DNA of 64,000 nt from a virus: IMG/VR virus record IMGVR_UViG_3300045988_104412; one strand, 5' to 3'. Both the position numbers and the translations under genes were made by a program. Of the stretch, positions 13,335-48,453 are shown in pieces. Each line of letters opens with the position of its first letter. The first letter of the stretch is position 1. The notes under the pieces were generated by a model. The model worked only from the letters and a program-made list of their open reading frames with translations, made no database searches and was not told where the DNA came from.

Positions 13335-13454
13335 TTATTTATAAATTTGTATTATTATATTTTTACTATCAAAGTCGGCATTTAGACAAATAGGAGGCGG
13401 CGTGCCATGCCAAAGAACTCACGAAAAGTCATTGTTACTCGAACGTAATCCAAT

Positions 13455-13516
13455 CGGACGGCGAACGCAATCCGAGCGGACGGCGAACGCAATCTAATTG
13501 GGCGGCGAACGCAATC
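13455..13516. repeat. three tandem 22-bp-period repeats, core GGCGAACGCAATC
   Basis: CGGACGGCGAACGCAATC occurs at 13455 and 13477, and TGGGCGGCGAACGCAATC at 13499, with a partial copy just upstream. Located between the radical-SAM stop and the PAPS-reductase start. Confidence 0.85.
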
Positions 13517-13532
13517 CGGAGAAACGAACCTT

Positions 13533-17285: not shown

Positions 17286-20200
17286 ATGGCAAATCTAAAG
17301 ACAGAAGTAATCCTCTCGATGAACGGCAAGGCCGCCATTCAGGTGCTCGAAGCTCTGCGCGACAAGGCCAGGTCTGTGAGAGAGGAAATAGATCATCTCG
17401 ACAAGGACGCTCCCGACTTCAAGGAGCGTAAGGCTGGACTCGAAAGCGTTTACAAGACTTTACAGAACTACCAAACGAATATCATCAAGGACACTGAGCG
17501 TCTCGACCATGCGCTTAAAAACCTTTCTACCACCTCGCTTCAAAACTTACGCAAGGCTTTGGGCGATGGTCGTCGTCAACTGCAAAAGTTATCTGAGGAC
17601 GACTTGGCGCAAGCCGAGGAGGTACGTAAGAAGATGAAGCAGGTGGGCGATGAGATACGCCTTATAGAGGGTCAGTATGTCAAGATAGCTGAAGGATTGA
17701 AGAATGTCGCCAACCAGTCTGACCAATGGCTCGACAAGGCTATCAAGCAGCAGCGCGACCTTGTGGGTTCGCTGCAAAAATCGGATGCCGGCTATCAGCA
17801 GAACCTCGCTACATTGAAGCAGCTTGAAGCCGAGGAAGACAGACGCAAGGGCAAGATGAACGTGGCAGAGGCACGTCAAACGGTAAGTGATGACAATGCC
17901 TCTGCTTCTGATTTGCGTCGTGCTAAAGCAACACTTACGGAAGCTCGTGACAAGACAGCCATCGGCAAGACTGGAGAGATTGATTCTTACAACCGTGACC
18001 TTCAAGAGATAGAGAGGCGATTGGAGGCTGTGTCGGGCAAGACTCAGAAAGCATCAATGAGTTGGAAACAGATGAAGCGAGTGTTGGCTGAACCCAACAA
18101 GGCTTCGGGCGAAGACATCAAACGTACGATGGAGGTGATACAGCAGAAGATACAGCAACTCCCTGCCGGCAGCAAGTATGTAGCCGACCTCCGTCGCCAA
18201 TACTCCATGCTCGAACAAACTCTTAAGGGCACACGTATGTCGCAGAGTGCTCTCAACGACATCCTCTCGCGTAGCAAGCAGGGTAAGGCTTCCCTCGACG
18301 AACTGCGCCGTGCCTACAAGCAGCTTGAGGAGGAAATGAACCAAGTCAACACCACGAGCAAGGAGTTTGCCGACAAGCAGAAGTCGATGAAAGAACTGAA
18401 GAAGAATATCGACGAGGTGACGGGCGCGACCAATAAGCAGGGTGGGGCATGGCATACGGCGTTGAAGAACCTCACGGCATACGTCGGATTGTTTTCCGTA
18501 TTCAATCATATAAAAGACCTTGTGACGGGTGCCATTAAGAAGAACTTTGAATATTCGGGTTCGTTGACCGACATCCGCAAGGTTTCTGGCTTGACAATGG
18601 AACAGGTAAAACAACTCTCTACTGAGTTGGCTAAAATTGACACCAGAACTTCTGTGGATGGACTGGCACAGCTCGCGTATCAGGGCGCGAAGCTCGGCAT
18701 GGGCAAGTATGGTGTTGAAGGTATGGCCCAGTTCGTAAGAGCCGCGGATCAAATCAATGTAGCCATTGGTGAGGAGATGGGCGAGGAAGCTCTTCCGGCA
18801 CTTTCTAAGATGGTGGAAGTTATGGGACTTATTCCAAAAATGGGTATCGAGAAGGCAATGGAGGCTACAGGCTCTGCCATGTTTAAGTTGTCTTCTACGA
18901 GCACATCTACTTCCAACGACATCGTGGAATTTTCAAAGCGACTGACGGGTGTTGCTCGTACCGCGGGTATCACCACCGACCAGTTGCTTGCCCTCGGTTC
19001 GGCAAGTTCTTCGATGATGCTTATGCCGGAGGTGGCTTCTACCGCTATGGGTAAGTTTATAGTAGCTTTGCAGAAAAACCACAACCTTATTGCAAAGGAA
19101 CTTGGCATACCCGATGAGACCATTAAGAACCTCTATGCGTCGGGTCACGCTATGGATGCCATCGTGCTTGTACTTGAGAAGATGCGCGACAAGGGTAATA
19201 TGAACACCTTGGGTGGCATTTTCAAAGACCTCGGCTCCGACGGTCAGCGACTCGTTACCGCTATGGTTACGATGTCGAAGAACGTGGATATTCTGAAGGA
19301 TCATCTCTACGAGTCGGAAGAGGCGTTCCGTGAAGCCACTGCTGTAGGCAAGGAATACTCGATGCAGCAGCTGTCGGCCATCGGTATTCTCGAAAGAGCC
19401 AATAACCTTTGGGAAAAGGCGTTTGTCAATCCTGATGGTGTGGACGCTGTAAAGGGCATGGCAGAATGGTGGTATGAAATGTCGGCAACGATGACAAACA
19501 GCCCGTTGTTGAAAGGTACGTTGCAGATTGCTTTACAGATGGTACTTATAACATTGAAAGCCGTAGCGACCCTTTTGCCGGTAATCATTGGATATATGGC
19601 TTCACAGGGTCTTTATTCTGGATTGAGACTTCTGTGGCAATACTTGACAGCACTGGGTGTAGCGGTAAAGAGTATGTTTCAATATGCAAGAGCTCTCTTC
19701 ACGGCCAATGCAGCGCAAAGCACGTTGAACAAGACTACGAAACTAAACCCTTGGATAGCTTTCGCGAGTGTTATTATCGGCGTGGCAGGAGCTATATATG
19801 GATATACACAACGTGCAAGGGAAGCTGCTGAAGCTGCGAAAGAAGCTGAGAGACAGGCAAACGCATGGAAGTCCACCCTCGGTCAGGCAGCGATAGAAAC
19901 GGAAAACTTGAAGGATAAGCTCAAGAACTATAAGCGAATGTTGAGCGAGGCAAACCTTTCACAAAAGGACCGTCAAGGTCTTATCTCAAGATTTAACAGA
20001 GATTTCCGCTCGTACATCAATAATCTCGGCATTGAGATAAAGAACGTCAAGGATTTGCGCGACCATTATGCAGATTTGGCGCAGGAGGCCGAAAGAGCTA
20101 CCTATTATCGTATGCGTGAGCAAGCAAAGCAGCAGGCTTTGCCTAAGCTGGACAATGACGTAAACACTGCTTCCAATGCAGTTATGGAGAATATAACGAA

Positions 20201-23200
20201 GTTGGGATTAGACAAACTCGGTGTGAAGTTTAAGGATATATACCGGTGGGTGAAAGCAGGAATGAGTGCCAAAGACATCACTCTGAAACTGGCAAAAATG
20301 TTACCGAGGGAAAAGACAGGATTGGCTGATGGATTTAACTGGAAGATAGGCAAGCAGGGTTACATCTACCGTGATACCTATGATAAAGACCATAAAGCTA
20401 CCCCCGCTACTGATTTTCAAACTCAGACTGAACTCGCCGATATGTATCGCGACAACCTCTGGTTTGTCAATGCTTACAAAAGGAAGGGAAAGAAATTAAA
20501 GCAGATTAACAAGGCTTTTAGCAACTGGGTGGATGAAAACTATCAACCAACTCCTCCTGAGACACCAGGAACTCTTGACAACAATGCTAAGGATAAAGAC
20601 GCAATAGCAGAAGAGAAGCGAAGAGAGAACGACCAGAAGCGTGCTTGGCGTGAGGAACTGAAGCAGAAGCAGGATCAGGCGAAGGCCATCATGGATGACG
20701 TGAGCAACTACTACGACCGTCAGATTAACGCTAAGTTGGCTCAAGCCATATCTCTCAATATGGACAAGACCGAGCAGGAGCAGTTTGTTCTTCCTTTGAG
20801 GCAAAACAAAGAAATAGCTCGTTCGCAGGTGCGTCTTGCTGTTGCAGGTAAACCGAATAAGTGGGAGGATGCGAAGAAGATGATGGCTGCTGATATGGTG
20901 GAGCAAAAGGACGAGACGGGCATAAACCTTTCAAAAGATTTGCTTGACGGTATATTGAACAACAACATCGACAATCTACGCAAACTCATGGAGCAGTTGG
21001 GTAAAAATCTCGGTTTGTCCATGAACTCCATCACGGCAGAGATTTTTGCAAAAGCCACTCGTAGCGAGCAGGAAATTCTGAAAATGGAGCTCAAGCAGAT
21101 GGAGGCTCGCCGTAAGATTGTTATGGAGCATGACTACACGGGTATTGTTCAGCAGAACTCGTATGACAACTTCAACGAAATGGGTTATGCCGCGCCTACG
21201 AAGGAAGAGACTACCGTCACAAAGAAAATGGTTGACGGAAAGGAGGTTCTTGATACGTCTGCTTTTGATAAGCGCAGAAAAGCTATCAAGGATATGTACG
21301 AGACAGCTCGCAAGGAACTCGCCCAGCTATATGCCATTGATGTATCAACAACGGATGGTAAGGGAGTGTTGATGAAGATACTCTTTGGCGACGATCCCGA
21401 CGGTATGGCTGCTCGAATAAAAGCATCATTGGGCGAAAGCGAGGAAAGCTGGAAGTCGTTTTACTTGAATCTTATCCAGTACTCTGATAATTATGCGGAA
21501 GCTGAAAAGAAAAAGTACGACTCGGCAAAGAAAATCGTTGATTTCTGGTGGTCATCCAATAAGCGCAATCTTGCCCAGCAGGACAAATTGCGCAAGATGC
21601 AAAACGAGAGTAACCTTTTCGGTAAACGTACAAACCTTCTCTCTAATCTCGGTCTCGCCAACCTCACAGCCGACCCTGAGATAGAACTAATGAAGGCGCG
21701 TATGCAAGCTGCTGAAGACTATTACGCCTTTGTAGAACGTAACACGAAGAACAAGCAGCTTATTGACGAAGCCGAACGTGCTCGCCAGGAAGCAGAACTT
21801 GCCTATGCCAATCAGATGGCAACAGCTATGAAGTCGCGCCTCTCGCAGATGAAGGAACTCGTGCAGCCTATCGAGGACTTCGGCGCAGCCGTAGGACAGG
21901 CTCTTGCCGAAATGCGCTATGATGCCGAGAGTGCAAATGACGCTATAAAGTCTGCTCTCAAGTCTATGCTTGAATCCTGGGCGAAGATGGCTCTTAATGA
22001 TGTCAACACGCAGATGTGGAAAGCAATCAACGATGCAGGTGCCAAGCGAGGTAAGAAGAAAGCACAACCCGACATCGACGCAGCGCGTGCCAATGCAAAA
22101 GCGAATTATACCGATCTAAACGGCATTGATTGGCGTAACTTTGGTACGGAGTCAAATCCTTTGTGGGTGCGCTGGGCGGGCGACCATTACGAAAACAAAT
22201 CTGGCGATGCTGTTTATACAAAAGAGGATGGTACGCCTTTGCCTAATCCGAATGGCAGCGTTCCCCAATCTAACGAACCTCCATCAGCGTGGAAGAAACG
22301 CCACCCGGACGGAACTATTGACGACTACAACAAGGAAGTTAAGAGTCTTGGTGGTCAGGTGGGTACGTCGATGGTTGGGCAGACAGGCGCTTCTGTAGCT
22401 GGTGCAGTTACAGGCAGCAGTAGTTTTGGCGACGCTGCTACTGGCATTGCTATGAGTGGTGCGGATGCTCTTCTTAACGCTCAGATTAAAAAAACTTCAA
22501 AGAGTGAGAAGGAGAGGGAGAAGCAGCTCAAGAAGGAGAAGAAACATCAAAAAGACCTTACCAAGGAAACGAAAAAAGGTCTCTCTGATCGTGAAAAGGC
22601 TACCGGTAAGGGAGTCAAGAACATAACTTCTACGACGGAACAAGGTAATAAAGAGCAAAGCAAAGGTACTGTTGTAGCACAGCAGACAATCACGAACGCT
22701 ACCGAGGCGGGCCTTAACGCAACTCTTACTGCCAAGCAGAAGAACAATGACGAAACTCTAAAGTCGGATGCGAATCGCACCCAAGGCGAGGTTACGTTCT
22801 CTATTGCTGGTGCAATGGCTAAGTGCTTTGAGTTCTTAGGTCCGATTGCTGGTCCGATTGCCGCTGCCGTAGTTATGTCTACCCTTATGGGACTTCTTCA
22901 GTGGGCTTTAAATTCAGCTCTTGGTGGAGGAAAGAAGAAAAACTCAACCAAGGGTCCTAATACTAAGGTTGTATCTGGTATGCTTACCTATGACTCCGGC
23001 AACGTACAAGATCTCCGTCCGTTTGTCGGTAACGATGGTAGCCTTTACTGGGCGGCAGAGGACAGCAATCCTCACAATGGCGTATCACTCCTTACACGGC
23101 CTACGGCGACCTCTATCAACGGACATCCGTCGCTGGTGGCCGAGAAAGGTCCAGAACTTGTAATCGGACGCGAGACTACGCAAGCCATGATGATGAACAA

Positions 23201-23486
23201 TCCACAACTGCTGAAAGCTCTCGTCAATTATGACCGCAACTATTCCGGTCGCCACGCCTACGACACTGGCAATATCTCCGAGACAAGCCCCACGATCGCC
23301 GCAGAGTCTTCCATAAGCGACGAAATGGTGTCTAACCAAGCCACTACCAATATCGCCCTCCTGCAAGCCGTAAACACGCTCCTGCAACGTCTGGAGCAAC
23401 CTATCGAGGCAAAGATAGATATGTATGGCCGTGGCAAGCTCTACGACAGCATGACAAAAGCTAATCAGTTTATGAAGAACAAATAG
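17286..23486 (+). CDS. tail tape measure protein (2066 aa)
   Basis: Very long, coiled-coil-rich protein. It has a TP901-type core-like segment (GSLTDIRKVSGLTMEQVKQLS...AYQGAKLGMG) and hydrophobic segments. No internal stops. Confidence 0.7.
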   Translation: MANLKTEVILSMNGKAAIQVLEALRDKARSVREEIDHLDKDAPDFKERKAGLESVYKTLQNYQTNIIKDTERLDHALKNLSTTSLQNLRKALGDGRRQLQKLSEDDLAQAEEVRKKMKQVGDEIRLIEGQYVKIAEGLKNVANQSDQWLDKAIKQQRDLVGSLQKSDAGYQQNLATLKQLEAEEDRRKGKMNVAEARQTVSDDNASASDLRRAKATLTEARDKTAIGKTGEIDSYNRDLQEIERRLEAVSGKTQKASMSWKQMKRVLAEPNKASGEDIKRTMEVIQQKIQQLPAGSKYVADLRRQYSMLEQTLKGTRMSQSALNDILSRSKQGKASLDELRRAYKQLEEEMNQVNTTSKEFADKQKSMKELKKNIDEVTGATNKQGGAWHTALKNLTAYVGLFSVFNHIKDLVTGAIKKNFEYSGSLTDIRKVSGLTMEQVKQLSTELAKIDTRTSVDGLAQLAYQGAKLGMGKYGVEGMAQFVRAADQINVAIGEEMGEEALPALSKMVEVMGLIPKMGIEKAMEATGSAMFKLSSTSTSTSNDIVEFSKRLTGVARTAGITTDQLLALGSASSSMMLMPEVASTAMGKFIVALQKNHNLIAKELGIPDETIKNLYASGHAMDAIVLVLEKMRDKGNMNTLGGIFKDLGSDGQRLVTAMVTMSKNVDILKDHLYESEEAFREATAVGKEYSMQQLSAIGILERANNLWEKAFVNPDGVDAVKGMAEWWYEMSATMTNSPLLKGTLQIALQMVLITLKAVATLLPVIIGYMASQGLYSGLRLLWQYLTALGVAVKSMFQYARALFTANAAQSTLNKTTKLNPWIAFASVIIGVAGAIYGYTQRAREAAEAAKEAERQANAWKSTLGQAAIETENLKDKLKNYKRMLSEANLSQKDRQGLISRFNRDFRSYINNLGIEIKNVKDLRDHYADLAQEAERATYYRMREQAKQQALPKLDNDVNTASNAVMENITKLGLDKLGVKFKDIYRWVKAGMSAKDITLKLAKMLPREKTGLADGFNWKIGKQGYIYRDTYDKDHKATPATDFQTQTELADMYRDNLWFVNAYKRKGKKLKQINKAFSNWVDENYQPTPPETPGTLDNNAKDKDAIAEEKRRENDQKRAWREELKQKQDQAKAIMDDVSNYYDRQINAKLAQAISLNMDKTEQEQFVLPLRQNKEIARSQVRLAVAGKPNKWEDAKKMMAADMVEQKDETGINLSKDLLDGILNNNIDNLRKLMEQLGKNLGLSMNSITAEIFAKATRSEQEILKMELKQMEARRKIVMEHDYTGIVQQNSYDNFNEMGYAAPTKEETTVTKKMVDGKEVLDTSAFDKRRKAIKDMYETARKELAQLYAIDVSTTDGKGVLMKILFGDDPDGMAARIKASLGESEESWKSFYLNLIQYSDNYAEAEKKKYDSAKKIVDFWWSSNKRNLAQQDKLRKMQNESNLFGKRTNLLSNLGLANLTADPEIELMKARMQAAEDYYAFVERNTKNKQLIDEAERARQEAELAYANQMATAMKSRLSQMKELVQPIEDFGAAVGQALAEMRYDAESANDAIKSALKSMLESWAKMALNDVNTQMWKAINDAGAKRGKKKAQPDIDAARANAKANYTDLNGIDWRNFGTESNPLWVRWAGDHYENKSGDAVYTKEDGTPLPNPNGSVPQSNEPPSAWKKRHPDGTIDDYNKEVKSLGGQVGTSMVGQTGASVAGAVTGSSSFGDAATGIAMSGADALLNAQIKKTSKSEKEREKQLKKEKKHQKDLTKETKKGLSDREKATGKGVKNITSTTEQGNKEQSKGTVVAQQTITNATEAGLNATLTAKQKNNDETLKSDANRTQGEVTFSIAGAMAKCFEFLGPIAGPIAAAVVMSTLMGLLQWALNSALGGGKKKNSTKGPNTKVVSGMLTYDSGNVQDLRPFVGNDGSLYWAAEDSNPHNGVSLLTRPTATSINGHPSLVAEKGPELVIGRETTQAMMMNNPQLLKALVNYDRNYSGRHAYDTGNISETSPTIAAESSISDEMVSNQATTNIALLQAVNTLLQRLEQPIEAKIDMYGRGKLYDSMTKANQFMKNK

Positions 23487-30367: not shown

Positions 30368-30441
30368 AGCGGAGTGGTAGCAGCTGGCAGCTCACTTGGC
30401 TCATAACCAAGAGGTCGATGGTTCGAGTCCATCCTCCGCAA
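30368..30441 (+). tRNA. tRNA with anticodon CAT (Met, or Ile2 if lysidine-modified)
   Basis: Acceptor GCGGAG/CTCCGC. Anticodon stem CTTGG/CCAAG with loop CTCATAA (CAT at 30402..30404). T-arm GATGG-TTCGAGT-CCATC. The D-arm is atypical and position 1:72 would be A:A. Confidence 0.75.
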
Positions 30442-30505
30442 CTTTTAACAACCAGGTAAAAAGGTTGTATTCAGGATAACACAACACAAAACACAGATTT
30501 TACTA

Positions 30506-40369: not shown

Positions 40370-40549
40370 ATGTATATCAAGGTAATACATCGCAACCGTC
40401 CCGGCTGCGAAAAAGTAACAAACAATAACGTCACAATAACCGACCCTTCGGATCTTTTTTCGACTATAGAAGATGCGTTGAAATATTGGAAAGAACTTGA
40501 CCGTAATGCCGTAAGGTTGAATTTGGAGGATTTAAGCGGAACAAAGTAA
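40370..40549 (+). CDS. small hypothetical protein (59 aa), in frame with the preceding TAG-terminated gene
   Basis: ATG lies one codon after TAG 40364..40366. Below the ORF-track cutoff; translated by hand as MYIKVIHRNRPGCEKV...EDLSGTK. Confidence 0.35.
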   Translation: MYIKVIHRNRPGCEKVTNNNVTITDPSDLFSTIEDALKYWKELDRNAVRLNLEDLSGTK

Positions 40550-40550
40550 A

Positions 40551-40570
40551 GTATTAACGAAAATATAGAG
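40551..40570 (+). promoter_or_regulatory. conserved leader motif GTATTAACGAAAATATAGAG (copy 3)
   Basis: Identical to copy 1; ends 4 nt before ATG 40575. Confidence 0.6.
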
Positions 40571-40574
40571 GACA

Positions 40575-41012
40575 ATGAAAAAAGAGAAAATAAAGCAGTT
40601 GATGGATGTAATGCAGGCGTATGTAAATGGCAAAACTATCCAATATTACAAAGTTGACCTTAGCTTTAAGATTGAACATCCAGGAGAGCCTAATTTCAAC
40701 GATAAATGGGTAGATGTGGATGAAGAACATCTTTTTAGACCTGATTTGTACGACTACCGCATCAAGCCCGAGCCCAAGTACCGCTCGTTTAAGAAAGCAG
40801 AAGAATGTTGGCAAGAGATGCTGAAACACCAACCGTTCGGTTGGATTAAGAGTAAGACAGATGGCCATTATTCTATGGTCACGGTGGTAGATGCTGCTGA
40901 AGACATGAAGAGTATTGCGATAAGCGGCGATCATATTTTGTCTTTCGCTGAAATAATGAGAGGCTACACCTTCGCCGACGGAACACCTTTCGGTATAAAG
41001 GAGGAACATTAA
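40575..41012 (+). CDS. hypothetical protein
   Basis: 145-aa ORF preceded by the leader motif. Confidence 0.5.
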   Translation: MKKEKIKQLMDVMQAYVNGKTIQYYKVDLSFKIEHPGEPNFNDKWVDVDEEHLFRPDLYDYRIKPEPKYRSFKKAEECWQEMLKHQPFGWIKSKTDGHYSMVTVVDAAEDMKSIAISGDHILSFAEIMRGYTFADGTPFGIKEEH

Positions 41013-41181
41013 AGGTTTTAACGTTTGTAAACGCGGATATGAAAACAGACATCACGCAAGACATCTTCAAATATTTAGAGGTCGTTTGGTCTGAACCGGA
41101 AAAAGAATAGCCTAAAAAGTTGAACCGGAAGTACCGTGTCTGAGCGAATACAATAACAACATAAAAGAATTTATAGAGATT

Positions 41182-41643
41182 ATGAGAACAATCAAGTTTA
41201 AGGCAAAGTGCGTTAAGGACGGTTCATGGACTGTTGGCGATTTGAATCATGTAATGAATTATATGTGCATCAAGCCCTGGTCTGAGACTTTTCACCGTGC
41301 GCTCGTTGATCCGAGGACCGTCTGTCAGTTCACCGGCTTCACGGACAAGAACGGCAAGGAGATTTATGAAGGCGACGTGTTGCAGTCCGACACCTATCCG
41401 TTCAGTTGCACCGAAGACAATGCGTATAACAATTATTACGGCACGATAGGATGGAGCGAGGAAGATGCATCATTCTATATCGTGGCTATCAAGAACCCTA
41501 AGTCTTCCGTCAGAGGCATTTCCGAAGGCATCTGCGATTTCATTTCGCAAAAGACGGTGCAAGACTTCGAGGTTGTTGGTAGCGTTCACGATAAGGAATG
41601 GCAGGAGAAGCTGAACTATAATCCCTACGAAGAGGAGGAATAG
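41182..41643 (+). CDS. YopX family protein
   Basis: IKFKAK at the N-terminus and QFTGFTDKNGKEIYEGDVL, typical of YopX. Confidence 0.75.
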   Translation: MRTIKFKAKCVKDGSWTVGDLNHVMNYMCIKPWSETFHRALVDPRTVCQFTGFTDKNGKEIYEGDVLQSDTYPFSCTEDNAYNNYYGTIGWSEEDASFYIVAIKNPKSSVRGISEGICDFISQKTVQDFEVVGSVHDKEWQEKLNYNPYEEEE

Positions 41644-41646
41644 AGT

Positions 41647-42216
41647 ATGAAGATAAAAAACAAGGAATTGTTAAGAAAATATTCCCTTTACGAGAGTGGC
41701 GTTTGGACGAAACCTCGCAATTTCCCTCTACTGTGGGATGCAGCAAAGCGTCGCATAGGATGGAGGTGTGACGTGCTCCGCTGTTGCGCTAACTACAACA
41801 AAATTGCTTTATTGGATAACAAAGTGCTTCTTGACTTTTGCGACCCGAAGAAGTTTCACTTTCCCCAAAAGCAGCGCATTGACCCTCGTGTTTTTGACCC
41901 GAGATGGGATTTGTCCCATGAATATTATGTCGTAAGGAAGAAAAACAATCGGTATAAGGTTGTTCTGAATAAGTTCAAAAGGCCTTCCGTCGGAAGAACC
42001 TTGGTGGTAGATACAAAGAGAGGTTATATCCGTAGGATTGGCGACAAGGTATGGTATCATCCAGATTATATGGATTTCGGCTGTGAAACCTGTGCTGACT
42101 TCGGAACCTGCCGGTCTGGTCATTACGACAAGAGTTTTTGTGCGGTGGCTGCAAAGTGCGGACTCGGTCACGGTAATACCTGGCAGGAAGTAAGAGAAAA
42201 CAATGACCAACATTAA
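41647..42216 (+). CDS. hypothetical Cys-rich protein
   Basis: 189-aa ORF; C-terminal part contains CETCADFGTCRSGH. Confidence 0.5.
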   Translation: MKIKNKELLRKYSLYESGVWTKPRNFPLLWDAAKRRIGWRCDVLRCCANYNKIALLDNKVLLDFCDPKKFHFPQKQRIDPRVFDPRWDLSHEYYVVRKKNNRYKVVLNKFKRPSVGRTLVVDTKRGYIRRIGDKVWYHPDYMDFGCETCADFGTCRSGHYDKSFCAVAAKCGLGHGNTWQEVRENNDQH

Positions 42217-42337
42217 GATTTCGGTACATCCCGTTAGTCATCGGCTCGAATGGCGAGGATGGGGGGGTAGTTTCTCGCCCGCCCTTCGAGCCACCGACTA
42301 CAAATGCCCACACTGCATAATGATTGAATATGACTGA
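42203..42337 (+). CDS. C5-MTase TRD-like mini-ORF M1 (44 aa)
   Basis: Hand translation MTNIKISVHPVSHRLEWRGWGGSFSPALRATDYKCPHCIMIEYD. SPALRATDYK resembles the TRD core (sPTLtA.dyK). Contains a G7 tract (42261..42267) that is in frame. Its ATG overlaps the upstream gene end. Confidence 0.45.
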   Translation: MTNIKISVHPVSHRLEWRGWGGSFSPALRATDYKCPHCIMIEYD

Positions 42338-42646
42338 CCCTCACTACAAGCGCGGCACTATCCGCAAGGATGGCAAGCTGTATGGCCGCTATCCCGACGG
42401 CTCGCTCTATCGCATCTACTCCACCACCGACCGACCGTTTCTTCAGTTGGTGGACCGAGAGGGCGAGACGTTCCTTCGCATACGCCAAGCCACCGAGCTG
42501 GGCTATACCGACTGTCCCTGCCCAGGAGCTGCCGACCTAAGTTATCCGTCCTCGGCTCTGAGGCGCAGTCGGACGGTTGGGGGGTTAAGTTGGTAAACGC
42601 TCTGACCGCAGTAAGTAGCGGAATCTGCGTGTTTGTTGAATTATAA
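42330..42646 (+). CDS. C5-MTase TRD-like mini-ORF M2 (about 105 aa), out of frame at a G6 tract
   Basis: ...RIRQATELGYTDCPCPGAADLSYPSSALRRSRTVGG, then after G6 (42579..42584) the alternative frame reads VKLVNALTAVSSGICVFVEL. This is the classical pattern atkkGY...sRRgRVg..a.aLTa. G7 would join the frames. Confidence 0.5.
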
Positions 42647-42660
42647 AAAGAATAAGATTT

Positions 42661-43035
42661 ATGAAAAACAAAAACCGACTACCTAACGTGATATTCATGT
42701 CACCGAAGATTTCTGAGTTACTGGGAACATTGATAACAGAAGATGGTGCCTATATTGAATCAGACAGCAAAGGAATAGATATTGGAAATTTGTCTTCATT
42801 TGATGACGATATTGACAAAAAATCCGAATATCGCAACATTTTTCAACTGTGGCATCCTGCCAGAGAACAACCGCATTGCACAGGATCGCTTCTCTGCTGG
42901 CGACTCGGTGGCACATTCTTCGTGCATGAACATTATGATCATAATGAACAGAATTGGCGAATGTTTATCAGCGAATACGAAGTGCGGCGTTATTGTTATA
43001 TTGGCAACTTGGAACCAACCTGTTCTTTTGTTTGA
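42661..43035 (+). CDS. hypothetical protein inserted in the TRD array
   Basis: 124-aa AT-rich ORF. Its 3-prime end overlaps another frame that ends in a TRD-tail-like ...ECLSANTKCGVIVILATWNQPVLLFEEYD (stop 43046..43048). Confidence 0.4.
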   Translation: MKNKNRLPNVIFMSPKISELLGTLITEDGAYIESDSKGIDIGNLSSFDDDIDKKSEYRNIFQLWHPAREQPHCTGSLLCWRLGGTFFVHEHYDHNEQNWRMFISEYEVRRYCYIGNLEPTCSFV

Positions 43036-43040
43036 AGAAT

Positions 43041-43172
43041 ATGACTAATCTTGACTTCTACCAATATCCCCGTGGCTTCAACGACGGAGGCAGATTAAAC
43101 ACAGCTATTTGTCCGACCGTGTCAACTTACTCGTGGCCGCAAAATGTATTTCTGATTGAAGAATATGAATAA
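43041..43172 (+). CDS. C5-MTase TRD-like mini-ORF M3 (43 aa)
   Basis: MTNLDFYQYPRGFNDGGRLNTAICPTVSTYSWPQNVFLIEEYE, with the CPTVST core and LIEEYE tail. Confidence 0.45.
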   Translation: MTNLDFYQYPRGFNDGGRLNTAICPTVSTYSWPQNVFLIEEYE

Positions 43173-43318
43173 CATCACTATAGACTACCGCATCCCGAAA
43201 GTCGGGGGGGGTATTTACGCAAGCAACCGCCGAGTTCAATAAAGGAAGCCTAAGCGGACTAAGCCGCTGTCTGAAGGCTAATGTGAACGATGCAGGAGTA
43301 ATGATTGAATACGAATAA
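43165..43318 (+). CDS. C5-MTase TRD-like mini-ORF M4 (about 50 aa), out of frame at a G8 tract
   Basis: MNNITIDYRIPKVGG, then after G8 (43204..43211) the other frame reads VFTQATAEFNKGSLSGLSRCLKANVNDAGVMIEYE. G7 would join the frames. Confidence 0.5.
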
Positions 43319-43331
43319 AAGTAAGACAACA

Positions 43332-44651
43332 ATGATCACAAAACTCAACTTCACCGACCGCACCATCAAGAGCTATGCCATCCGCAAGCTCACGCCCAAG
43401 GAGTGTTTTCGTCTGATGGGCGTTCGCGACAATGTAATCAGTACGATGCAGAGCAGCAATGCCCAGGCAGCCGAGCGAGTACCCGATTGGAAGGGCAAGG
43501 GCAAACCCGAAGACATGGCTATATCAGCGTCACAGCAGTACAAATTAGCCGGCAACTCAATTGTAGTGGATGTGTTGGCCCATATCTACGAGCAGTTGTT
43601 CTATCCGAAGCCGAATCAGCGCAAATTCAGGCAACTCTCGCTCTTCACCGACATCGGCGACTATCTGCCCGACATGCCGAAGAACTTAGCCAACTCTGGT
43701 AAGGAAAAGATTTTCCTTACCACGTTCTCCGGCTACGACTCGCAGCTCATGGCAGCCGACTTGCTAAAGTCTTGGCGCCCCGATTTTCATTGGACGTGCG
43801 TCGGATGGAGCGACATCGACAAATATGCTTGTCAGATGCACGACCTCGTATTTCCTCAGTTTGCCGACTGCGCCTTGGGCGACATCACCAAGATTGACTG
43901 GCACGAAGTAAAATGCTCACTCGAAAGTCGCGAAGTGGATCTTTTCACCTATTCGTCGCCATGCCAGGACATATCGCAAGCCGGCAAGCAGATGGGACTC
44001 AAAGAAGGCAGCGATACCCGAAGCGCTTTGCTCTGGCATGTAGCCAAAGCCGTGGAGGTGTTGCGTCCCAAATATCTCTTGCAGGAGAACGTAGCGGCGC
44101 TGGTTAGCCAGAAGTTCATGCCCGACTTCCAGAAGTGGCTTGACAAGCTCTCGTCGCTCGGCTACGTTAGCAAGTGGAGTCGGCTGAATGCTAAGAATTA
44201 CGGTGTGCCGCAAAATCGCGATAGAGTGTTTTGTCTTTCAATGCGCAAAGACGTAGCCTTCGACTATCAGTTTCCCGAACCATTTTTGCTGAAAACCCGA
44301 CTGGAGGACGTGCTGGAAGAAGAAGTGTCCGACCGCTATTTCCTCAAGGACGATGCCGTGAGCAAGTTCCTCAAGGCAAATGACTCTGACAACGCCCTAT
44401 TTCTTCAGTTTGACCTGCCACCGACACACGAGGCTGCAATGTTCTTGAAAACGTGGCTTACGTTGTGGATGCAAGCAGCCGATGGTTGGAAAATGACATC
44501 TACAAGTCTCCAGCTCGCCCTTTATTCGGCAAAGCAGAAAATGGAGCAGTCTTATTCCGTGTTCATGGATAAGGGTGTGGCTGCGTTAGGCGATGAGTTT
44601 CAACGGTTGTTCAAGGAGAATATGGAGAGGAAGAAGGATGGAGACAAATAA
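43332..44651 (+). CDS. DNA (cytosine-5)-methyltransferase catalytic core, circularly permuted (motifs IX-X precede I-VIII), no internal TRD recognised
   Basis: In order: IRKLTPKECFRLMG (IX), AGNSIVVDV (X), the linker with QLSLF, TFSGYDS (I), SSPCQDIS (IV), LQENV (VI), PQNRDRVF (VIII), then an atypical helical tail of about 115 aa. Confidence 0.8.
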   Translation: MITKLNFTDRTIKSYAIRKLTPKECFRLMGVRDNVISTMQSSNAQAAERVPDWKGKGKPEDMAISASQQYKLAGNSIVVDVLAHIYEQLFYPKPNQRKFRQLSLFTDIGDYLPDMPKNLANSGKEKIFLTTFSGYDSQLMAADLLKSWRPDFHWTCVGWSDIDKYACQMHDLVFPQFADCALGDITKIDWHEVKCSLESREVDLFTYSSPCQDISQAGKQMGLKEGSDTRSALLWHVAKAVEVLRPKYLLQENVAALVSQKFMPDFQKWLDKLSSLGYVSKWSRLNAKNYGVPQNRDRVFCLSMRKDVAFDYQFPEPFLLKTRLEDVLEEEVSDRYFLKDDAVSKFLKANDSDNALFLQFDLPPTHEAAMFLKTWLTLWMQAADGWKMTSTSLQLALYSAKQKMEQSYSVFMDKGVAALGDEFQRLFKENMERKKDGDK

Positions 44652-44659
44652 CCCACTTC

Positions 44660-44786
44660 ATGCTATACAAAATGGGGGGGTACGATTGCACCTGCTATCA
44701 CCTCCCACTATTTCAAAGCGAGCGTGCGAGACTTTCTTTTTGCACTTGCCATACCTCACTGCTGTTTAATAATAGAGTATGATTGA
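44660..44786 (+). CDS. C5-MTase TRD-like mini-ORF M5 (about 41 aa), out of frame at a G7 tract; its TRD frame continues the core ORF frame after TAA
   Basis: MLYKMGG, then after G7 (44674..44680) the other frame reads TIAPAITSHYFKASVRDFLFALAIPHCCLIIEYD. G6 would join the frames. The same frame is contiguous with the core across TAA 44649..44651. Confidence 0.45.
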
Positions 44787-44916
44787 CAAGATTGGCAATA
44801 TTTATTACGACAAGTGGAAGTCGGGCTTCGATGGTAATATCTGCGGCACGAAAGGTATATGCCCTCCCCTAACCTTGTCAACACAAACGGGGAGGGTAAT
44901 GATTGAATATGCTTAG
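44779..44916 (+). CDS. C5-MTase TRD-like mini-ORF M6 (45 aa)
   Basis: MIDKIGNIYYDKWKSGFDGNICGTKGICPPLTLSTQTGRVMIEYA; its ATG overlaps the M5 stop (ATGATTGA). Confidence 0.5.
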   Translation: MIDKIGNIYYDKWKSGFDGNICGTKGICPPLTLSTQTGRVMIEYA

Positions 44917-45061
44917 GAACCCTCGCCCTATCGTTCTCGGCTCCTACAGCCCCTCGCAGAACGGCATCATAGTGTCGCCTCATGGCATAGCGCTGTGTAT
45001 AACTGGAGGAGGTAAGGGGCACGATGTGGATAAACCCAAAATTCTCATAGAGTATGATTGA
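44909..45061 (+). CDS. C5-MTase TRD-like mini-ORF M7 (50 aa)
   Basis: MLRNPRPIVLGSYSPSQNGIIVSPHGIALCITGGGKGHDVDKPKILIEYD. Confidence 0.5.
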   Translation: MLRNPRPIVLGSYSPSQNGIIVSPHGIALCITGGGKGHDVDKPKILIEYD

Positions 45062-45236
45062 CTGTTCAATTCTCGTCCACTACCGCACCGAGGAAGCAAA
45101 AGCCTTCCGCCGTGAGCATGGTGATCGTGGAGGATGCAAATACGGCGATAAGTATCACCGCCCCAGTCCGTATCCGTGGTGCAATTCGATAACAACAGTA
45201 ACAAAAGACAACCTATTATGCTACGTTTTCGCATAG
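45054..45236 (+). CDS. C5-MTase TRD-like mini-ORF M8 (60 aa)
   Basis: Listed ORF; ...CNSITTVTKDNLL matches the sNTiTTvqKDNl TRD signature. Confidence 0.5.
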   Translation: MIDCSILVHYRTEEAKAFRREHGDRGGCKYGDKYHRPSPYPWCNSITTVTKDNLLCYVFA

Positions 45237-45382
45237 CAGCCTTCCGAGGCCGTGACCCCGATAATCCGTCCGACCGCAAGCATCCCTCCAACGGACGCTT
45301 CTGTCAGAGAATGGAGATAAACGGGGAGGGTACAACAAACACCCTCACCTCAGTAGGCAAAGACAATATGTTATATATATAG
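45218..45382 (+). CDS. C5-MTase TRD-like mini-ORF M9 (54 aa)
   Basis: MLRFRIAAFRGRDPDNPSDRKHPSNGRFCQRMEINGEGTTNTLTSVGKDNMLYI, the classical RiaasRGR..npsdR...QRlE.n..g.sNTLTsV.KDN pattern. Confidence 0.55.
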   Translation: MLRFRIAAFRGRDPDNPSDRKHPSNGRFCQRMEINGEGTTNTLTSVGKDNMLYI

Positions 45383-45383
45383 T

Positions 45384-45533
45384 ATGAATAGAAAAATACC
45401 ATTTGTACAACGTCTTGCGCTGTTTTGCCCACGTCGGGGGTACTCCACCGCACTGTCCGCACGCTACGACGGATGGGCAGGACTCTACGACGAGCACGGA
45501 CAGCACACCATTGTATTGATAGAATATGATTAG
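45384..45533 (+). CDS. C5-MTase TRD-like mini-ORF M10 (49 aa)
   Basis: MNRKIPFVQRLALFCPRRGYSTALSARYDGWAGLYDEHGQHTIVLIEYD. Confidence 0.45.
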   Translation: MNRKIPFVQRLALFCPRRGYSTALSARYDGWAGLYDEHGQHTIVLIEYD

Positions 45534-45672
45534 ATTGCAAATCTTAAAATCTCTTTTCCTCACAATATGCGCCACCATTCTTGCGCATTACCACAAGGAG
45601 GGAGCAGGCAATATCATACAAGGCTCAAGTTCGCTCGTCAAAGCACCAGCAGTATTGATAGAATATGATTGA
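45526..45672 (+). CDS. C5-MTase TRD-like mini-ORF M11 (48 aa)
   Basis: MIRLQILKSLFLTICATILAHYHKEGAGNIIQGSSSLVKAPAVLIEYD (the cPTi.A.yhKgg pattern). Confidence 0.5.
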   Translation: MIRLQILKSLFLTICATILAHYHKEGAGNIIQGSSSLVKAPAVLIEYD

Positions 45673-45835
45673 CAAATATTACATCGGATGGGTACGCAGC
45701 GGCAAGGGTCTCGTAAAGAGCCGACCGCGCAAGCGGATAGCCAATGCCGTGACGACAATGGTCGGGAGAGGTATTGCCGACCATCGCGACGGACTGGGCA
45801 ACACCACACCGCATATAGTATATAAATTTGAGTAA
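45665..45835 (+). CDS. C5-MTase TRD-like mini-ORF M12 (56 aa)
   Basis: MIDKYYIGWVRSGKGLVKSRPRKRIANAVTTMVGRGIADHRDGLGNTTPHIVYKFE. Confidence 0.45.
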   Translation: MIDKYYIGWVRSGKGLVKSRPRKRIANAVTTMVGRGIADHRDGLGNTTPHIVYKFE

Positions 45836-45859
45836 GATTTGAAACTAAGAATTGTTCCA

Positions 45860-46006
45860 ATGGAGGCCTATGACGGTTGCATACCCGTAACCGTCTATAT
45901 GGTTCAGAAATATGTCGACCACTTCCCATTCGGCAAATGGGTAAACATAAAAGGGTTTTCCGACAAGAAAAAGGCTGTGGCATTAATGTCGCTATTGTAT
46001 CATTAA
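45860..46006 (+). CDS. small hypothetical protein (48 aa)
   Basis: Hand-translated MEAYDGCIPVTVYMVQKYVDHFPFGKWVNIKGFSDKKKAVALMSLLYH; below the ORF-track cutoff. Confidence 0.3.
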   Translation: MEAYDGCIPVTVYMVQKYVDHFPFGKWVNIKGFSDKKKAVALMSLLYH

Positions 46007-46028
46007 ACAAACATAAAATTGAGCAACT

Positions 46029-46730
46029 ATGAAGAAAGAAGAAATTAAGCCCGGAGACGTTCTTTACGACAAAGAGCGGAATCTGTTAGTAAAGGTAGCG
46101 AGAGTAGATGAAGATGGAGTGGTGAAGTATTCGGCTTACAGCGACATGCAAAGAATATTTAAGACCTGTCCTCCACCTTATTGCATAGGCATACGTACAG
46201 CCGAGGCTTACGTTCCGGCAACCGCCGTGCAGCGCAAGTATATGGAAAGAAATCTGACAGTGTGCGAGTATGTAAATCTGCCTAAGAACAATCGTATGGA
46301 GACACTTGCTTACATCATCTCCGACTTGAAGGCAGAGAACGTGGAGCTGGAGCAGCGTGTGCATCAGCTTATGGATGAATACAACGACGTGGTCCATCAG
46401 CTGCACGGAGCAGAAACGCGCAAGGAAGAAGACCCTACGAGACAAACGCTCAGTGAGATGCGCCAGATGCGCGACCATTGCGACAAGTTGGAGGTCGAAA
46501 ACAAAGATTTAAATAAGTGCTTAATCGCAGTTAGTTCGTTTCTGAAAAACCACAAACTGTATATGGCTTACGGAGCATCATGCTCTTATCGGTCTGGTCA
46601 CCCTGCCGTGAGTTCTCCGTCTTGTCGGGAGTGTTGTTCATACAAAAGTGACTTGCTGGACTGCGGCGTGGTCTGCGAAAGGAGACTTTCAGATGCAAAT
46701 GTTAGTTTCACTCGCGCCGAAGATTCTTGA
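46029..46730 (+). CDS. hypothetical protein (central coiled coil, Cys-rich C-terminus)
   Basis: 233-aa ORF. Confidence 0.5.
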   Translation: MKKEEIKPGDVLYDKERNLLVKVARVDEDGVVKYSAYSDMQRIFKTCPPPYCIGIRTAEAYVPATAVQRKYMERNLTVCEYVNLPKNNRMETLAYIISDLKAENVELEQRVHQLMDEYNDVVHQLHGAETRKEEDPTRQTLSEMRQMRDHCDKLEVENKDLNKCLIAVSSFLKNHKLYMAYGASCSYRSGHPAVSSPSCRECCSYKSDLLDCGVVCERRLSDANVSFTRAEDS

Positions 46731-46856
46731 TGGAGCACTTTTTGACGTCACCCTTTCTCCATTTCTTTCCAATATTGCAAAGATTGGAAAGAATGGAGTT
46801 CTCACTTCGAAACCGCGTATTCTGAGTATTCTGTGGTCAAAAACAATATTTCATTT

Positions 46857-47210
46857 ATGATACAACATCAGCATTGGGAAGATTCTATTCGCATATTCGT
46901 CACCGACGAGCTGCATCATGGCAGCGTGCAGGCGTTCATCCCGAACCTCATTGAAGACAAGCCTTTGGATGGTGAGGCAGACGCTCTCATCTATTCGCTG
47001 TGGGTTGAAGAAGCGTACCGTGGTCGCGAGGTGGCAAAGCACTTGATGGAGGCAGTCGAAAGGGAACTGAAATCCTATGGCGTAAAAACTTTAGCAATAT
47101 CGTGGGACGGACGCGACTCTCCCCAGTGGGTGTTGCAATGGTATGAAAGATTAGGCTACGAAAAAAAAGCGTGCGACTATCGCTGCTGTACGCTTCTCAA
47201 ACGGCTGTGA
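46857..47210 (+). CDS. GNAT family N-acetyltransferase
   Basis: LWVEEAYRGREVAKHLMEAVERELKSYGVKTLAISW (GNAT motif A, R-x-x-G-x-A-like). An A8 run stays in frame. Confidence 0.65.
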   Translation: MIQHQHWEDSIRIFVTDELHHGSVQAFIPNLIEDKPLDGEADALIYSLWVEEAYRGREVAKHLMEAVERELKSYGVKTLAISWDGRDSPQWVLQWYERLGYEKKACDYRCCTLLKRL

Positions 47211-47277
47211 TATTTGTCATCAGATGAAACAGATCTACTACACATTTCTTTTTTATTAACGGATTTATAGAACAAAA

Positions 47278-48453
47278 ATGAGTGACTTAAAAATTTTTGC
47301 TAAGACCATCGAGCCTGAAGCCAAGGAGCAAGTAAGGCAGATGGCAGAGAGCGCAGCCTACCGCGACTGCAAGATTCGCATTATGCCCGACTGTCATGCG
47401 GGTAAGGGATGCACAATAGGTACGGTAATTCAGACTGCCGGCAAGGTTGTACCTAATACCGTAGGCGTGGATATAGGCTGTGGTATGTTGGTATTCAAGT
47501 TCGCAGAGAAGGATATAAACCTTTCGCTTCTCGACCGAATCATCAATGAGTCGGTGCCGAGCGGATTTGACGTTCACGAAAAGTCCAAGCTAAAAGATTG
47601 GAGTCCACTTACGTCATATCTTTTGCTCGATTTGCACGAAAGGACACAAGGTTGCTTCGACCCCGACTATATCGGACGCTCGCTTGGCACCCTCGGTGGC
47701 GGCAATCACTTCATCGAGCTTGACGAGGACGAGCAGGGTTATAAGTATCTTGTGATACATTCGGGCAGTCGCAATCTCGGAGTTAAGGTGTGCAACTTTT
47801 TCGAACACTTAGCCAAGAAGAATGTGAATCGAAACGAGGAGCGCCAGCGCATCATCGAAGACTTTAAGAAGTACGGCTTAGAGAGGGAGATTAACAATAC
47901 GTTGCGTCGTTTTGGCACCGTGTCTCCCGATCTCGCCTATCTTGAGGGAGAAGACCTCAATGCCTATAATTTCGCAGCGAACGTCTGTCAGAATTTTGCC
48001 GACGACAACAGATGGAATATAGCAATACCTATAATCCATGGGCTTCAATTATCGTTCGTGGATTTCTTTACCACCAGGCATAACTATTTCGACATACACT
48101 CAGGCATCATCAGAAAAGGAGCTGTGAGTGCCGAAAATGGCGAACAGCTTATCATTCCTCTGAACATGCGCGACGGTTCGTTGATATGTCGCGGCAAGGG
48201 CAACGAAGACTGGCTTCAGTCGGCTCCGCACGGTGCAGGCAGACTGATGTCGCGCTCGGCTGCCAAGAAGCAGCTCAGCATGGAGGAATACCGCCAGCAG
48301 ATGCACGACATTTACTCCACATCGGTATGCGAGTCCACCATCGACGAATCACCAATGGCGTATAAGTCGGCAGTGGAGATTGAAGATCTGATAGGCGACA
48401 CCGTGACCGTGGTAAAGCGCATCAAGCCGATATACAACTTTAAGGCGAAGTAA
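47278..48453 (+). CDS. rtcB: RNA ligase RtcB
   Basis: IMPDCHAGKGCTIG, VGVDIGCGM, GGGNHFIELD and SAPHGAGR, the full set of RtcB metal- and GMP-binding motifs. Confidence 0.9.
   Translation: MSDLKIFAKTIEPEAKEQVRQMAESAAYRDCKIRIMPDCHAGKGCTIGTVIQTAGKVVPNTVGVDIGCGMLVFKFAEKDINLSLLDRIINESVPSGFDVHEKSKLKDWSPLTSYLLLDLHERTQGCFDPDYIGRSLGTLGGGNHFIELDEDEQGYKYLVIHSGSRNLGVKVCNFFEHLAKKNVNRNEERQRIIEDFKKYGLEREINNTLRRFGTVSPDLAYLEGEDLNAYNFAANVCQNFADDNRWNIAIPIIHGLQLSFVDFFTTRHNYFDIHSGIIRKGAVSAENGEQLIIPLNMRDGSLICRGKGNEDWLQSAPHGAGRLMSRSAAKKQLSMEEYRQQMHDIYSTSVCESTIDESPMAYKSAVEIEDLIGDTVTVVKRIKPIYNFKAK

Follow-up and report, generated by a model that had tools for sequence, protein, structure and literature searches.

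How does a phage come to encode a DNA cytosine-C5 methyltransferase (C5-MTase) without a target-recognition domain (TRD), set in a chain of small open reading frames (ORFs), and what could those ORFs do for it? The question is raised by positions 42203-45835 of a 64,000-nucleotide stretch of viral DNA (IMG/VR record IMGVR_UViG_3300045988_104412, here called the window), for which a first reading by a model from the letters alone (the original prediction) had proposed that twelve stand-alone TRD mini-ORFs, M1 to M12, serve a single catalytic core as exchangeable specificity subunits. All coding capacity of this interval lies on the + strand, with four small ORFs upstream of the core and eight downstream, and the predicted plan of one C5-MTase gene flanked by a chain of small + strand ORFs is borne out. 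We consider it probable that the locus encodes a multispecific, phase-variable phage C5-MTase, in which one core works with separately translated TRD subunits that assemble with it in trans. For the free single-TRD peptides of 40-105 residues we lean towards a role as interchangeable specificity subunits of the TRD-less enzyme, several of them with poly-G switches. The evidence comes from the window and from relatives of the core, which were found in at least 142 IMG/VR contigs; 80 of these loci were fetched, and all junction counts given below refer to the 80 loci plus the window. Individual loci carry L-numbers and homologous proteins P-numbers.

The core gene (43332-44651, + strand) encodes a protein of 439 residues that matches PF00145 with an E-value of 1e-50 (173 bits against a cut-off of 22). 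That it is circularly permuted, as predicted, follows from alignment to M.MpeI, which gives the motif order IX-X-I...VIII; core residues 15-47 correspond to M.MpeI residues 333-365 (motif IX), residues 64-91 to 363-390 (motif X), and residues 199-346 to 123-273 (motifs IV-VIII). Motifs I, IV, VI, VIII, IX and X are all present, and FSGYDS, SPCQD, QENV, QNRDRVF, RKLTPKEC and GNSIVV can be read in the translation. Beyond motif VIII the core has the usual FPEP...L.DVLE...YFL stretch, and its C-terminal ∼85 residues form a helical extension. The core is without a TRD; its N-terminus lies only 14 residues ahead of motif IX, and it retains its own copy of the strand that precedes this motif (TIKSY-AIRKLTP). 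AlphaFold2 modeling of the core on a shallow alignment gave a predicted local distance difference test (pLDDT) value of 35, and modeling on a diverse alignment of P0122, a member of the sister family described below in which a TRD is fused to the core, gave a mean pLDDT of 83. The P0122 model is confident over the core, which shows a hairpin at the N-terminus (residues 2-15), motifs IX-X and the catalytic domain, and over the C-terminal extension, which consists of three helices; the best Foldseek matches are M.MpeI, M.HhaI and M.HaeIII, with E-values down to 1e-15. The model confirms the enzyme class, a predicted C5-MTase fold, and is silent on docking.

If the core brings no TRD, are the modules around it TRDs? 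A tblastn search with the joined modules against 50,697 phage records matched six records, each inside an annotated C5-MTase; blastn of the locus against the same records gave no match. M9 is 60% identical to the TRD just before motif IX in the enzymes of Streptococcus prophage Javan179 and Dulem virus 39 (E-values of 7e-16 and 7e-14), M3 is 46% identical (E-value of 2e-8) to the last TRD of the Streptococcus prophage Javan117 enzyme, and M12 is 70% identical across all 56 residues (E-value of 2e-28) to residues 430-485 of P0122, the last 56 of that protein and its C-terminal TRD. M2, M6, M7 and M8 match TRDs of the same Javan and Dulem enzymes weakly (E-values of ∼1e-3 in a database of only six proteins), M2 aligning to the ATxxGY...RRGRV TRD of Javan117_39 and M7 to the TRD region of the Dulem virus 39 enzyme. 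Because the last TRD of the Javan117 enzyme reads ...FLVHEY and runs directly into RIRKLTP, the IEY ending of the modules is homologous to the residues immediately ahead of motif IX.

Comparisons with hhalign, in which non-TRD control ORFs formed no links, joined M11 with F22, F25 and an M4-like family at 55-97% (M11 to F22 at 84%, to F25 at 55% and to F13 at 74%; the M4-like family to the M11 group at 74%), M8 with F14 at 95%, and M6 and M7 with F9 and F30 at 75-91%. The predicted TRD identity of the modules thus stands clearly for M3, M9 and M12 and weakly for M2, M6, M7 and M8; these seven of the twelve are homologous to TRDs held in cis, and the rest are assigned by context and by the shared C-terminal motif. 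Pfam searches with ten single modules at E-values up to 10 gave no MTase match, since the profile has no signal in the variable region. A phmmer search of PDB sequences with the joined modules gave chance matches only, and a tblastn search of plasmids with M1, M4, M5, M6, M10, M11 and M12 gave none.

How would such short ORFs be translated? Most modules are joined by a TAT-GAn-TRR punctuation that ends one ORF and contains the ATG of the next. The ending (V/I/L/F)(L/M/I)IE(E)Y(D/E/A)-stop is indeed found in eight modules (M1, M3, M4, M5, M6, M7, M10 and M11). The consensus WTWGARTAYGANTRR, which had been reported for nine junctions, is matched exactly by six of them, all within the array and against 0.03 matches expected in the window, and the three others are off by one or two bases. 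The placement of the next ATG within the last codons of the preceding ORF was likewise recovered, at eight to nine window junctions. Across the loci the + strand carries 436 copies of the junction motif and the - strand none (median of 5 per locus), and the copies cluster around the core in nearly every locus. All 386 of the 386 junctions that have an overlapping next ORF read TAT-Gnn-stop, with the ATG starting one base into the Tyr codon, whereas the Tyr codon is TAC at 48 of the 50 junctions where no next ORF overlaps. The TAC junctions lie nearly all just 5' of the core, whose own ATG follows ∼13 nucleotides (nt) later. Elsewhere the choice of Tyr codon is mixed, with TAT 182 versus TAC 329 inside modules and 112 versus 125 in the long ORFs of the window. 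The last residue at the junctions is Asp, Glu, Ala or Val, all with G-initial codons, and TATGA, present in 350 of the 386, adds a TGA in the third frame, such that two frames are closed and one is opened; we infer that this would reset the frame after an out-of-frame module. The junctions look selected as stop-start sites, and the selection on the start codon supports the separate, termination-reinitiation style of initiation that had been proposed for them. Translational coupling is known for genes whose stop and start overlap, and the products of such gene pairs are often subunits of the same heteromeric complex (PMC6728339, PMC10666635).

The same junctions could be imagined as recoding sites, where a +1 shift or read-through would yield one multi-TRD polyprotein of the kind made by the Bacillus phages SPR and phi3T. 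The next ORF always lies in the +1 frame, and canonical multispecific enzymes hold their TRDs in a single chain. Yet the P-site codons (GAT, GAC, GAA and GCT) provide no slippery site, and the ATG is conserved, being lost precisely at those junctions that have no module after them. Moreover, all three stop codons are in use (TAA 257, TGA 130 and TAG 49), the window contains no suppressor tRNA, and an Rfam search of the array found no element and no known recoding RNA, so that read-through or reassignment is unlikely; we regard recoding as a whole as highly improbable. Stop-codon reassignment in particular is ruled out by the use of all three stops, by the location of the next ORF in another frame and by the lack of a suppressor tRNA in the window.

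A second layer of the array, overlooked in the original prediction, is formed by poly-G tracts. Four of the five + strand runs of six or more G in the whole window lie in the array (in M1, M2, M4 and M5). Among the loci, runs of at least seven G number 156 in array zones versus 9 outside, in similar amounts of sequence, and other homopolymers show no such array excess (A 86 inside and 96 outside, C 12 and 11, T 10 and 34). Orthologous tract lengths, read from consensus assemblies, span G6 to G11. The M1 tract was G6 in 3, G7 in 7, G8 in 13 and G10 in 1 of 24 loci; M4 tracts were G6 in 7, G7 in 2 and G8 in 3 loci, and M5 tracts ranged from G7 to G9. A G7 inside the core ORF, which serves as a control, is invariant in all six of the loci that have it. 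L009 and L010 show 0 mismatches over 13,314 bp, yet differ in the length of three of five tracts, and all three tracts differ between L045 and L048. ON and OFF states were called by the end motif, ORF length alone being ambiguous since wrong frames are often open up to the junction. The ON state was seen at 24 of 83 tracts where one length in three is productive and at 33 of 55 where two are, fractions that are close to those of free-running switches. By this pattern, the poly-G tracts of the array behave as contingency loci, setting the reading frame and differing between near-identical genomes.

Taken module by module, the window presents a mixture of states. M1 (42203-42337; all modules are on the + strand) is a TRD-like ORF of 44 residues that ends in IMIEYD, with a G7 tract at 42261-42267 in frame. 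M2 (42330-42646) would encode ∼105 residues when in frame and is broken at a G6 tract (42579-42584), its NALTAV...VFVEL part sitting in the next frame; the ortholog in L001 (G8) is an intact ORF of 105 residues, and that in L010 (G9) is broken, as in the window. Next comes an ORF of 124 residues without TRD features (42661-43035, + strand), missed in the earlier inventory of the array, which is present in 21 loci and has no Pfam or PHROG match. A relic junction, LLFEEYD followed by a stop at 43046-43048, ends 13 nt past this ORF and is the ninth occurrence of the module ending. In other loci (e.g. L092) the slot between M2 and M3 holds an unrelated ORF of 97 residues instead, and small accessory genes therefore seem to land at this position. 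M3 (43041-43172) encodes 43 residues ending in FLIEEYE, and M4 (43165-43318), a TRD-like ORF of 50 residues when in frame with the ending VMIEYE, is broken at a G8 tract (43204-43211) that G7 would put back in frame. The final Tyr codon of M4 is TAC, hence no ATG overlaps its end.

Downstream of the core, M5 (44638-44786), a TRD-like ORF with the ending LIIEYD, is broken at a G7 tract (44674-44680), where G8 would join it to the ATG at 44638 that overlaps the core end and G6 to an ATG at 44660. M6 (44779-44916) encodes 45 residues ending in VMIEYA, and M9 (45218-45382) encodes 54 residues (RGRDPDNPSDR...QRME...TNTLTSVGKDN); both are locked ON because their tracts are interrupted (GGGGAGGG, at 44889-44896 in M6 and 45323-45330 in M9). 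In L001, M9 has a pure G7 tract and its ORF is broken. M7 (44909-45061, 50 residues, ending ILIEYD) is found in 65 loci, and M8 (45054-45236) encodes 60 residues of the KDN type (...TTVTKDNLL...). They are followed by the TRD-like M10 (45384-45533, 49 residues, present in 59 loci) and M11 (45526-45672, 48 residues), both ending in VLIEYD, and by the last TRD mini-gene, M12 (45665-45835, 56 residues). In this genome we read M1, M3 and M6-M12 as ON and M2, M4 and M5 as OFF. The twelve tandem mini-ORFs of the original prediction are thus real as a layout, although three of them are not intact, each being frameshifted at a poly-G tract, and the TRD hallmarks assigned to these three (NALTAV in M2, RCLKAN in M4 and APAITS in M5) are not in the frame of the module ATG. 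That three of the twelve modules are switched off changes the picture of the system; the first observation is partly confirmed, and its first interpretation is partly supported.

Could the frameshifts instead mark a decayed multispecific MTase, or homopolymer sequencing errors? Three window modules are frameshifted at homopolymers, as either would have it. Against this, the same punctuation recurs in at least 80 independent assemblies, the G tracts are enriched in the arrays only with the control tracts invariant, and the modules keep ratios of nonsynonymous to synonymous polymorphism (pN/pS) below 1. Module families have pN/pS values of 0.15-0.6 at pS of ∼0.5, compared with 1.1-2.6 for overlapping wrong-frame ORFs; values for single modules are 0.46 (M1), 0.18 (M2), 0.18 (M7), 0.25 (M8) and 0.42 (M10), and the 124-residue ORF between M2 and M3 has 0.43. 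The modules are under purifying selection by this measure, evolving as coding sequence. Nearly all of the 80 fetched loci keep the layout of separate ORFs with stops, in line with the original view that the array is not the product of random decay. The array thus withstood the search for a single uninterrupted multi-TRD ORF in related phages, and likewise each of the other computational checks by which the original prediction could have been refuted. Decay or error is scarcely credible as an explanation; decay to a pseudogene is ruled out by the conserved layout in the relatives and by the pN/pS of the modules.

Modules also move. When all small ORFs were clustered, at least 25 families proved to be TRD-like, and most of these keep to a fixed side of the core, upstream or downstream. 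Homology breakpoints between close relatives coincide with module borders (M11, for example, is missing from several close relatives, with breakpoints at its borders), so that gain, loss and replacement each involve whole modules. The junction repeats of 19-23 nt are direct repeats, 74-100% identical to one another, and the array contains only three inverted pairs (14-19 nt, 79-86% complementary), with no recombinase nearby. An inversion shufflon was considered and is ruled out, there being no flanking inverted repeats. Might the mini-ORFs nevertheless be a library of cassettes, storing alternative TRDs that recombination at the junction repeats moves to or into the core slot, so that only an adjacent or fused TRD works and the others are translated incidentally? 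The direct repeats and the mosaic breakpoints suit such a library, as do the existence of cis-fused lineages and the two loci (L092 and L094) in which the core has no stop and one tract length would fuse it to the next TRD. However, silent cassettes need no ATG at each junction, yet TAT-G is kept at every overlapping one; they need no frame switches, yet poly-G tracts stand in modules far from the core; neither a recombinase nor inverted repeats are at hand; and the positions of upstream and downstream modules are largely fixed. We consider a cassette library unlikely.

Relatives that hold a TRD in cis show where the detached modules might act. In L058 the core ORF continues without a stop into an M12-like TRD ending in IIIEYD, and a fused sister family of at least 30 clusters (479-491 residues) consists of the whole core plus an M12-like C-terminal TRD. 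One member of this family, P0133 (843 residues), carries an intein (Pfam Hint_2, Intein_splicing and LAGLIDADG_3). A search for more distant permuted relatives, which covered 1.84 billion representatives, returned TRD-less cores at 46% identity (P0278), relatives with an N-terminal TRD and many canonical enzymes. P0201, P0255 and P0294 have one or two TRDs fused at the N-terminus, in the layout of M.BssHII. The P0278 locus (L175), from another type of phage whose GC content is 44%, has two mini-TRD ORFs downstream of its core, and the P0255 locus (L176, 55% GC) has four separate upstream modules plus one fused TRD. A TRD can therefore sit at either end of the core or stand detached, and the upstream and downstream arrays, as this comparison suggests, correspond to the core's two TRD attachment points.

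In L092 and L094 the stopless core runs into a poly-G tract; with G7 (L094) the adjacent TRD forms a separate ORF that has a start codon, and with G8 (L092) it has no start. Fusion of core and TRD is predicted for G9 or G6, a state seen at none of the loci. The last upstream module of two other loci (L035 at 5960 and L047 at 5085) contains a G7 tract 22 nt before its ILIEYK stop, where G8 would join most of this TRD to the N-terminus of the core through an open alternative frame, a possible free/fused switch. Such cases raise the question of whether TRDs act only once a tract change has fused them to the core, the free peptides being inert by-products. The cis-fused sister family, the three-state tract of L092 and L094 and the G8 state of L035 and L047 would all agree with this, but just the core-adjacent module can fuse, and the other 8-10 are still under purifying selection with start codons; in the window itself the core is separated from both neighbors by stops in all relevant frames. 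Action by fusion only is, on balance, quite unlikely. Splits of another kind occur in L091 (5875-7061), L081 and L083 (Javan179, Javan117), where enzymes of canonical order are divided in the variable region into motifs I-VIII and then TRDs with motifs IX-X; in L091 the first of the two ORFs contains a G7 tract ∼50 nt short of its end. Phage C5 enzymes split at the TRD may be more common than annotation suggests.

The reading that we prefer, a core served by free TRD subunits, would work as follows. The array would be transcribed as one mRNA, on which ribosomes terminate and reinitiate at every junction to release free peptides of 40-105 residues. Each peptide would dock on the core between the C-terminal helical extension and the N-terminal hairpin/motif IX, complete the small domain of the core and direct 5-methylcytosine (5mC) to a motif of its own. 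Slippage of the polymerase at the G tracts would toggle single specificities, and the phage population would in this way carry mixed methylation patterns, hedging restriction that methylation blocks against enzymes that cut methylated DNA. The general logic of hedging between methylation-blocked and methylation-requiring restriction has been set out before (PMC12707154). A scan for sigma-70 promoters and terminators gave counts close to the shuffled expectation, for a promoter type that may not be that of the host, and the single + strand terminator-like site within 40400-47400, a consensus match only, is at 45977-45992, inside the ORF at 45860-46006. The sole tRNA gene of the window is a tRNA-Met (CAT) at 30368-30442, and any link to reinitiation in the array is speculation.

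Several points weigh against this reading. We know of no experimental precedent for free TRD peptides of 40-60 residues as subunits. Known split C5-MTases keep the TRD joined to motifs IX-X or to motifs I-VIII and never have it alone (PMC3404938), and the assembly of peptide and core in trans is what we infer from the sequences. The TRD of the P0122 model has pLDDT values of 33-50, which leaves the docking geometry unsupported. M1, M4, M5, M10 and M11 gave no significant TRD match outside this phage group and are putative TRDs by their context. Some of the tract-length differences could be assembly errors, being read from consensus assemblies, and the OFF state of about two thirds of the gated modules in consensus sequences could also mean a relaxed need for them. 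Another function for the mini-proteins, such as inhibition or decoying of host methyltransferases or restriction enzymes, would find room in these five of twelve families. A core without a TRD would, however, be useless alone, and yet most of the fetched loci keep it intact; M12 is the TRD of the fused enzyme, and modules occur solely beside such cores. A function of this other kind we judge very unlikely.

The window is phage DNA. Its gene products include a tape-measure protein (17286-23486), a head protease, YopX, RtcB and proteins that resemble a terminase and a sliding clamp, and its nearest relatives are IMG/VR contigs of 45-110 kb; the majority of the listed IMG/VR relatives come from one large dataset and a few from other metagenome datasets. 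Identity to the core is 86% or higher in each of the 120 nearest protein clusters. Among collections of genomes, the core was found solely in metagenome bins, the two closest of which (81-84%) are labelled Prevotella. The window comes from a gut phage, possibly one of Prevotella, a host assignment that is tentative because the labels of the bins carrying the core are inconsistent. Directly 5' of the array lies a Cys-rich gene (41647-42216, + strand) that is conserved in relatives and has no Pfam or PHROG match, its last codons overlapping the ATG of M1. Directly 3' is a small, conserved ORF of 48 residues (45860-46006, + strand), which is present in 28 loci with a pN/pS of 0.28.

Two further methyltransferase genes of the window also contain homopolymer breaks. 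An NPPY-type MTase (phrog_799; 11076-11670, - strand) has a frameshift at C9 of its coding strand (G9 at 11220-11228 on the + strand), and C8 would restore its frame. Of the 80 relatives, 48 have a C5-C9 tract here and 32 an interrupted one (CCCCACCC); the ORF is long in 14 of the 21 loci with C8 and in none with C7 or C9. A third, beta-class MTase (10269-11053, - strand; DLPYG, then NCMGSGTT) consists of two overlapping ORFs split at a coding-strand A6 (T6 at 10679-10684 on the + strand), the site being A7, which joins the halves, in all five relatives where it was found. Adjoining these two genes on the - strand (12195-14543) are a radical-SAM gene and a gene resembling PAPS reductase, the latter with runs of G6 and G7 on its coding strand at 12334 and 12488; they may form a further DNA-modification module.

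Ordinary annotation misses such a system, since gene prediction passes over the mini-ORFs or breaks them up and Pfam is blind to them. The arrangement is common in public gut metagenomes (the contigs counted above) and may therefore shape phage-host range in a major human gut group. If our reading is right, this would be the first C5 enzyme with separate catalytic and specificity subunits, as in Type I systems, and the first phase variation of single specificities instead of a whole enzyme. A small separate peptide could then supply the DNA recognition of a C5-MTase, and n gated modules would give up to 2^n methylation patterns per phage lineage, a means of quick diversification against both methylation-blocked and methylation-dependent restriction. 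Swappable short TRD peptides with a common core would also be an attractive basis for programmable 5mC writers. To our knowledge, a TRD has so far always been found joined to catalytic motifs, so that the arrangement would be unexpected to specialists. In agreement with the earlier statement that it is undescribed, no description of arrays of stand-alone TRD genes was found in the literature searched.

How, then, does the array compare with known systems? The multispecific C5-MTases of Bacillus phages SPR, phi3T, rho11s and H2, which are used against host restriction, carry tandem TRDs of ∼40-50 residues on one framework; these TRDs form a continuous stretch of one chain between motifs VIII and IX in canonical motif order, each is thought to set its own target, and we know of no switching among them. 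The array resembles them in that several TRDs (here twelve modules) would serve one catalytic core, and differs in that the TRDs are separate ORFs with their own stop and start, the core is permuted and TRD-less, and single TRDs are gated by poly-G tracts. PMC12707154 lists Trautner et al. 1996 on these enzymes as its reference 31. Relatives with tandem TRDs in a single chain or in two ORFs are found in Dulem virus 39 and the Streptococcus Javan prophages. Active C5-MTases can consist of two polypeptides (M.AquI and M.EcoHK31I) or arise by artificial complementation between fragments, and they tolerate a split within or close to the variable region (PMC3404938, PMC5944983). The window shares with M.AquI and M.EcoHK31I a gene split in or beside the variable region; those enzymes have a single specificity and a fixed pair of subunits, and in the window the TRD by itself would be the subunit, with up to a dozen rivals per core. 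Natural permuted C5-MTases form type H (M.BssHII, M.Alw26I, M2.Eco31I, M.Esp3I and M2.BsaI; PMC5944983), in which motifs IX-X precede I-VIII as in the window core. In type H the N-terminus lies before the TRD, which is in cis, whereas the N-terminus of the window core lies after the TRD position; P0201, P0255 and P0294 have the type H layout with a cis TRD at the N-terminus, and the C-terminal TRD of the sister family is a topology absent from the natural enzymes listed in PMC5944983.

In its proposed logic the array also resembles the separate HsdS specificity subunits of Type I systems, whose phase-variable shufflons give mixed methylation patterns (PMC4948785, PMC7394358). Both would keep specificity apart from the catalytic subunit and both have several alternative TRDs, but Type I enzymes are adenine methyltransferases with a two-TRD S subunit that varies by site-specific inversion, and here a C5-MTase would work with one TRD per peptide and vary by homopolymer slippage; the inverted repeats flanking TRDs and the recombinase of an inverting hsdS shufflon are not part of the locus. 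Phase-variable homopolymers or repeats are known from Type III mod genes, the poly-G tracts of Campylobacter Fletchervirus receptor-binding genes, T2/T4 loci and the poly-G of a Bordetella phage methylase (PMC12707154, PMC12633550). As in these phasevarions and phage contingency loci, coding homopolymers of changing length set the frame in the array, but where the known cases switch a whole methyltransferase or tail-fiber gene, each tract here would switch one module of a shared enzyme.

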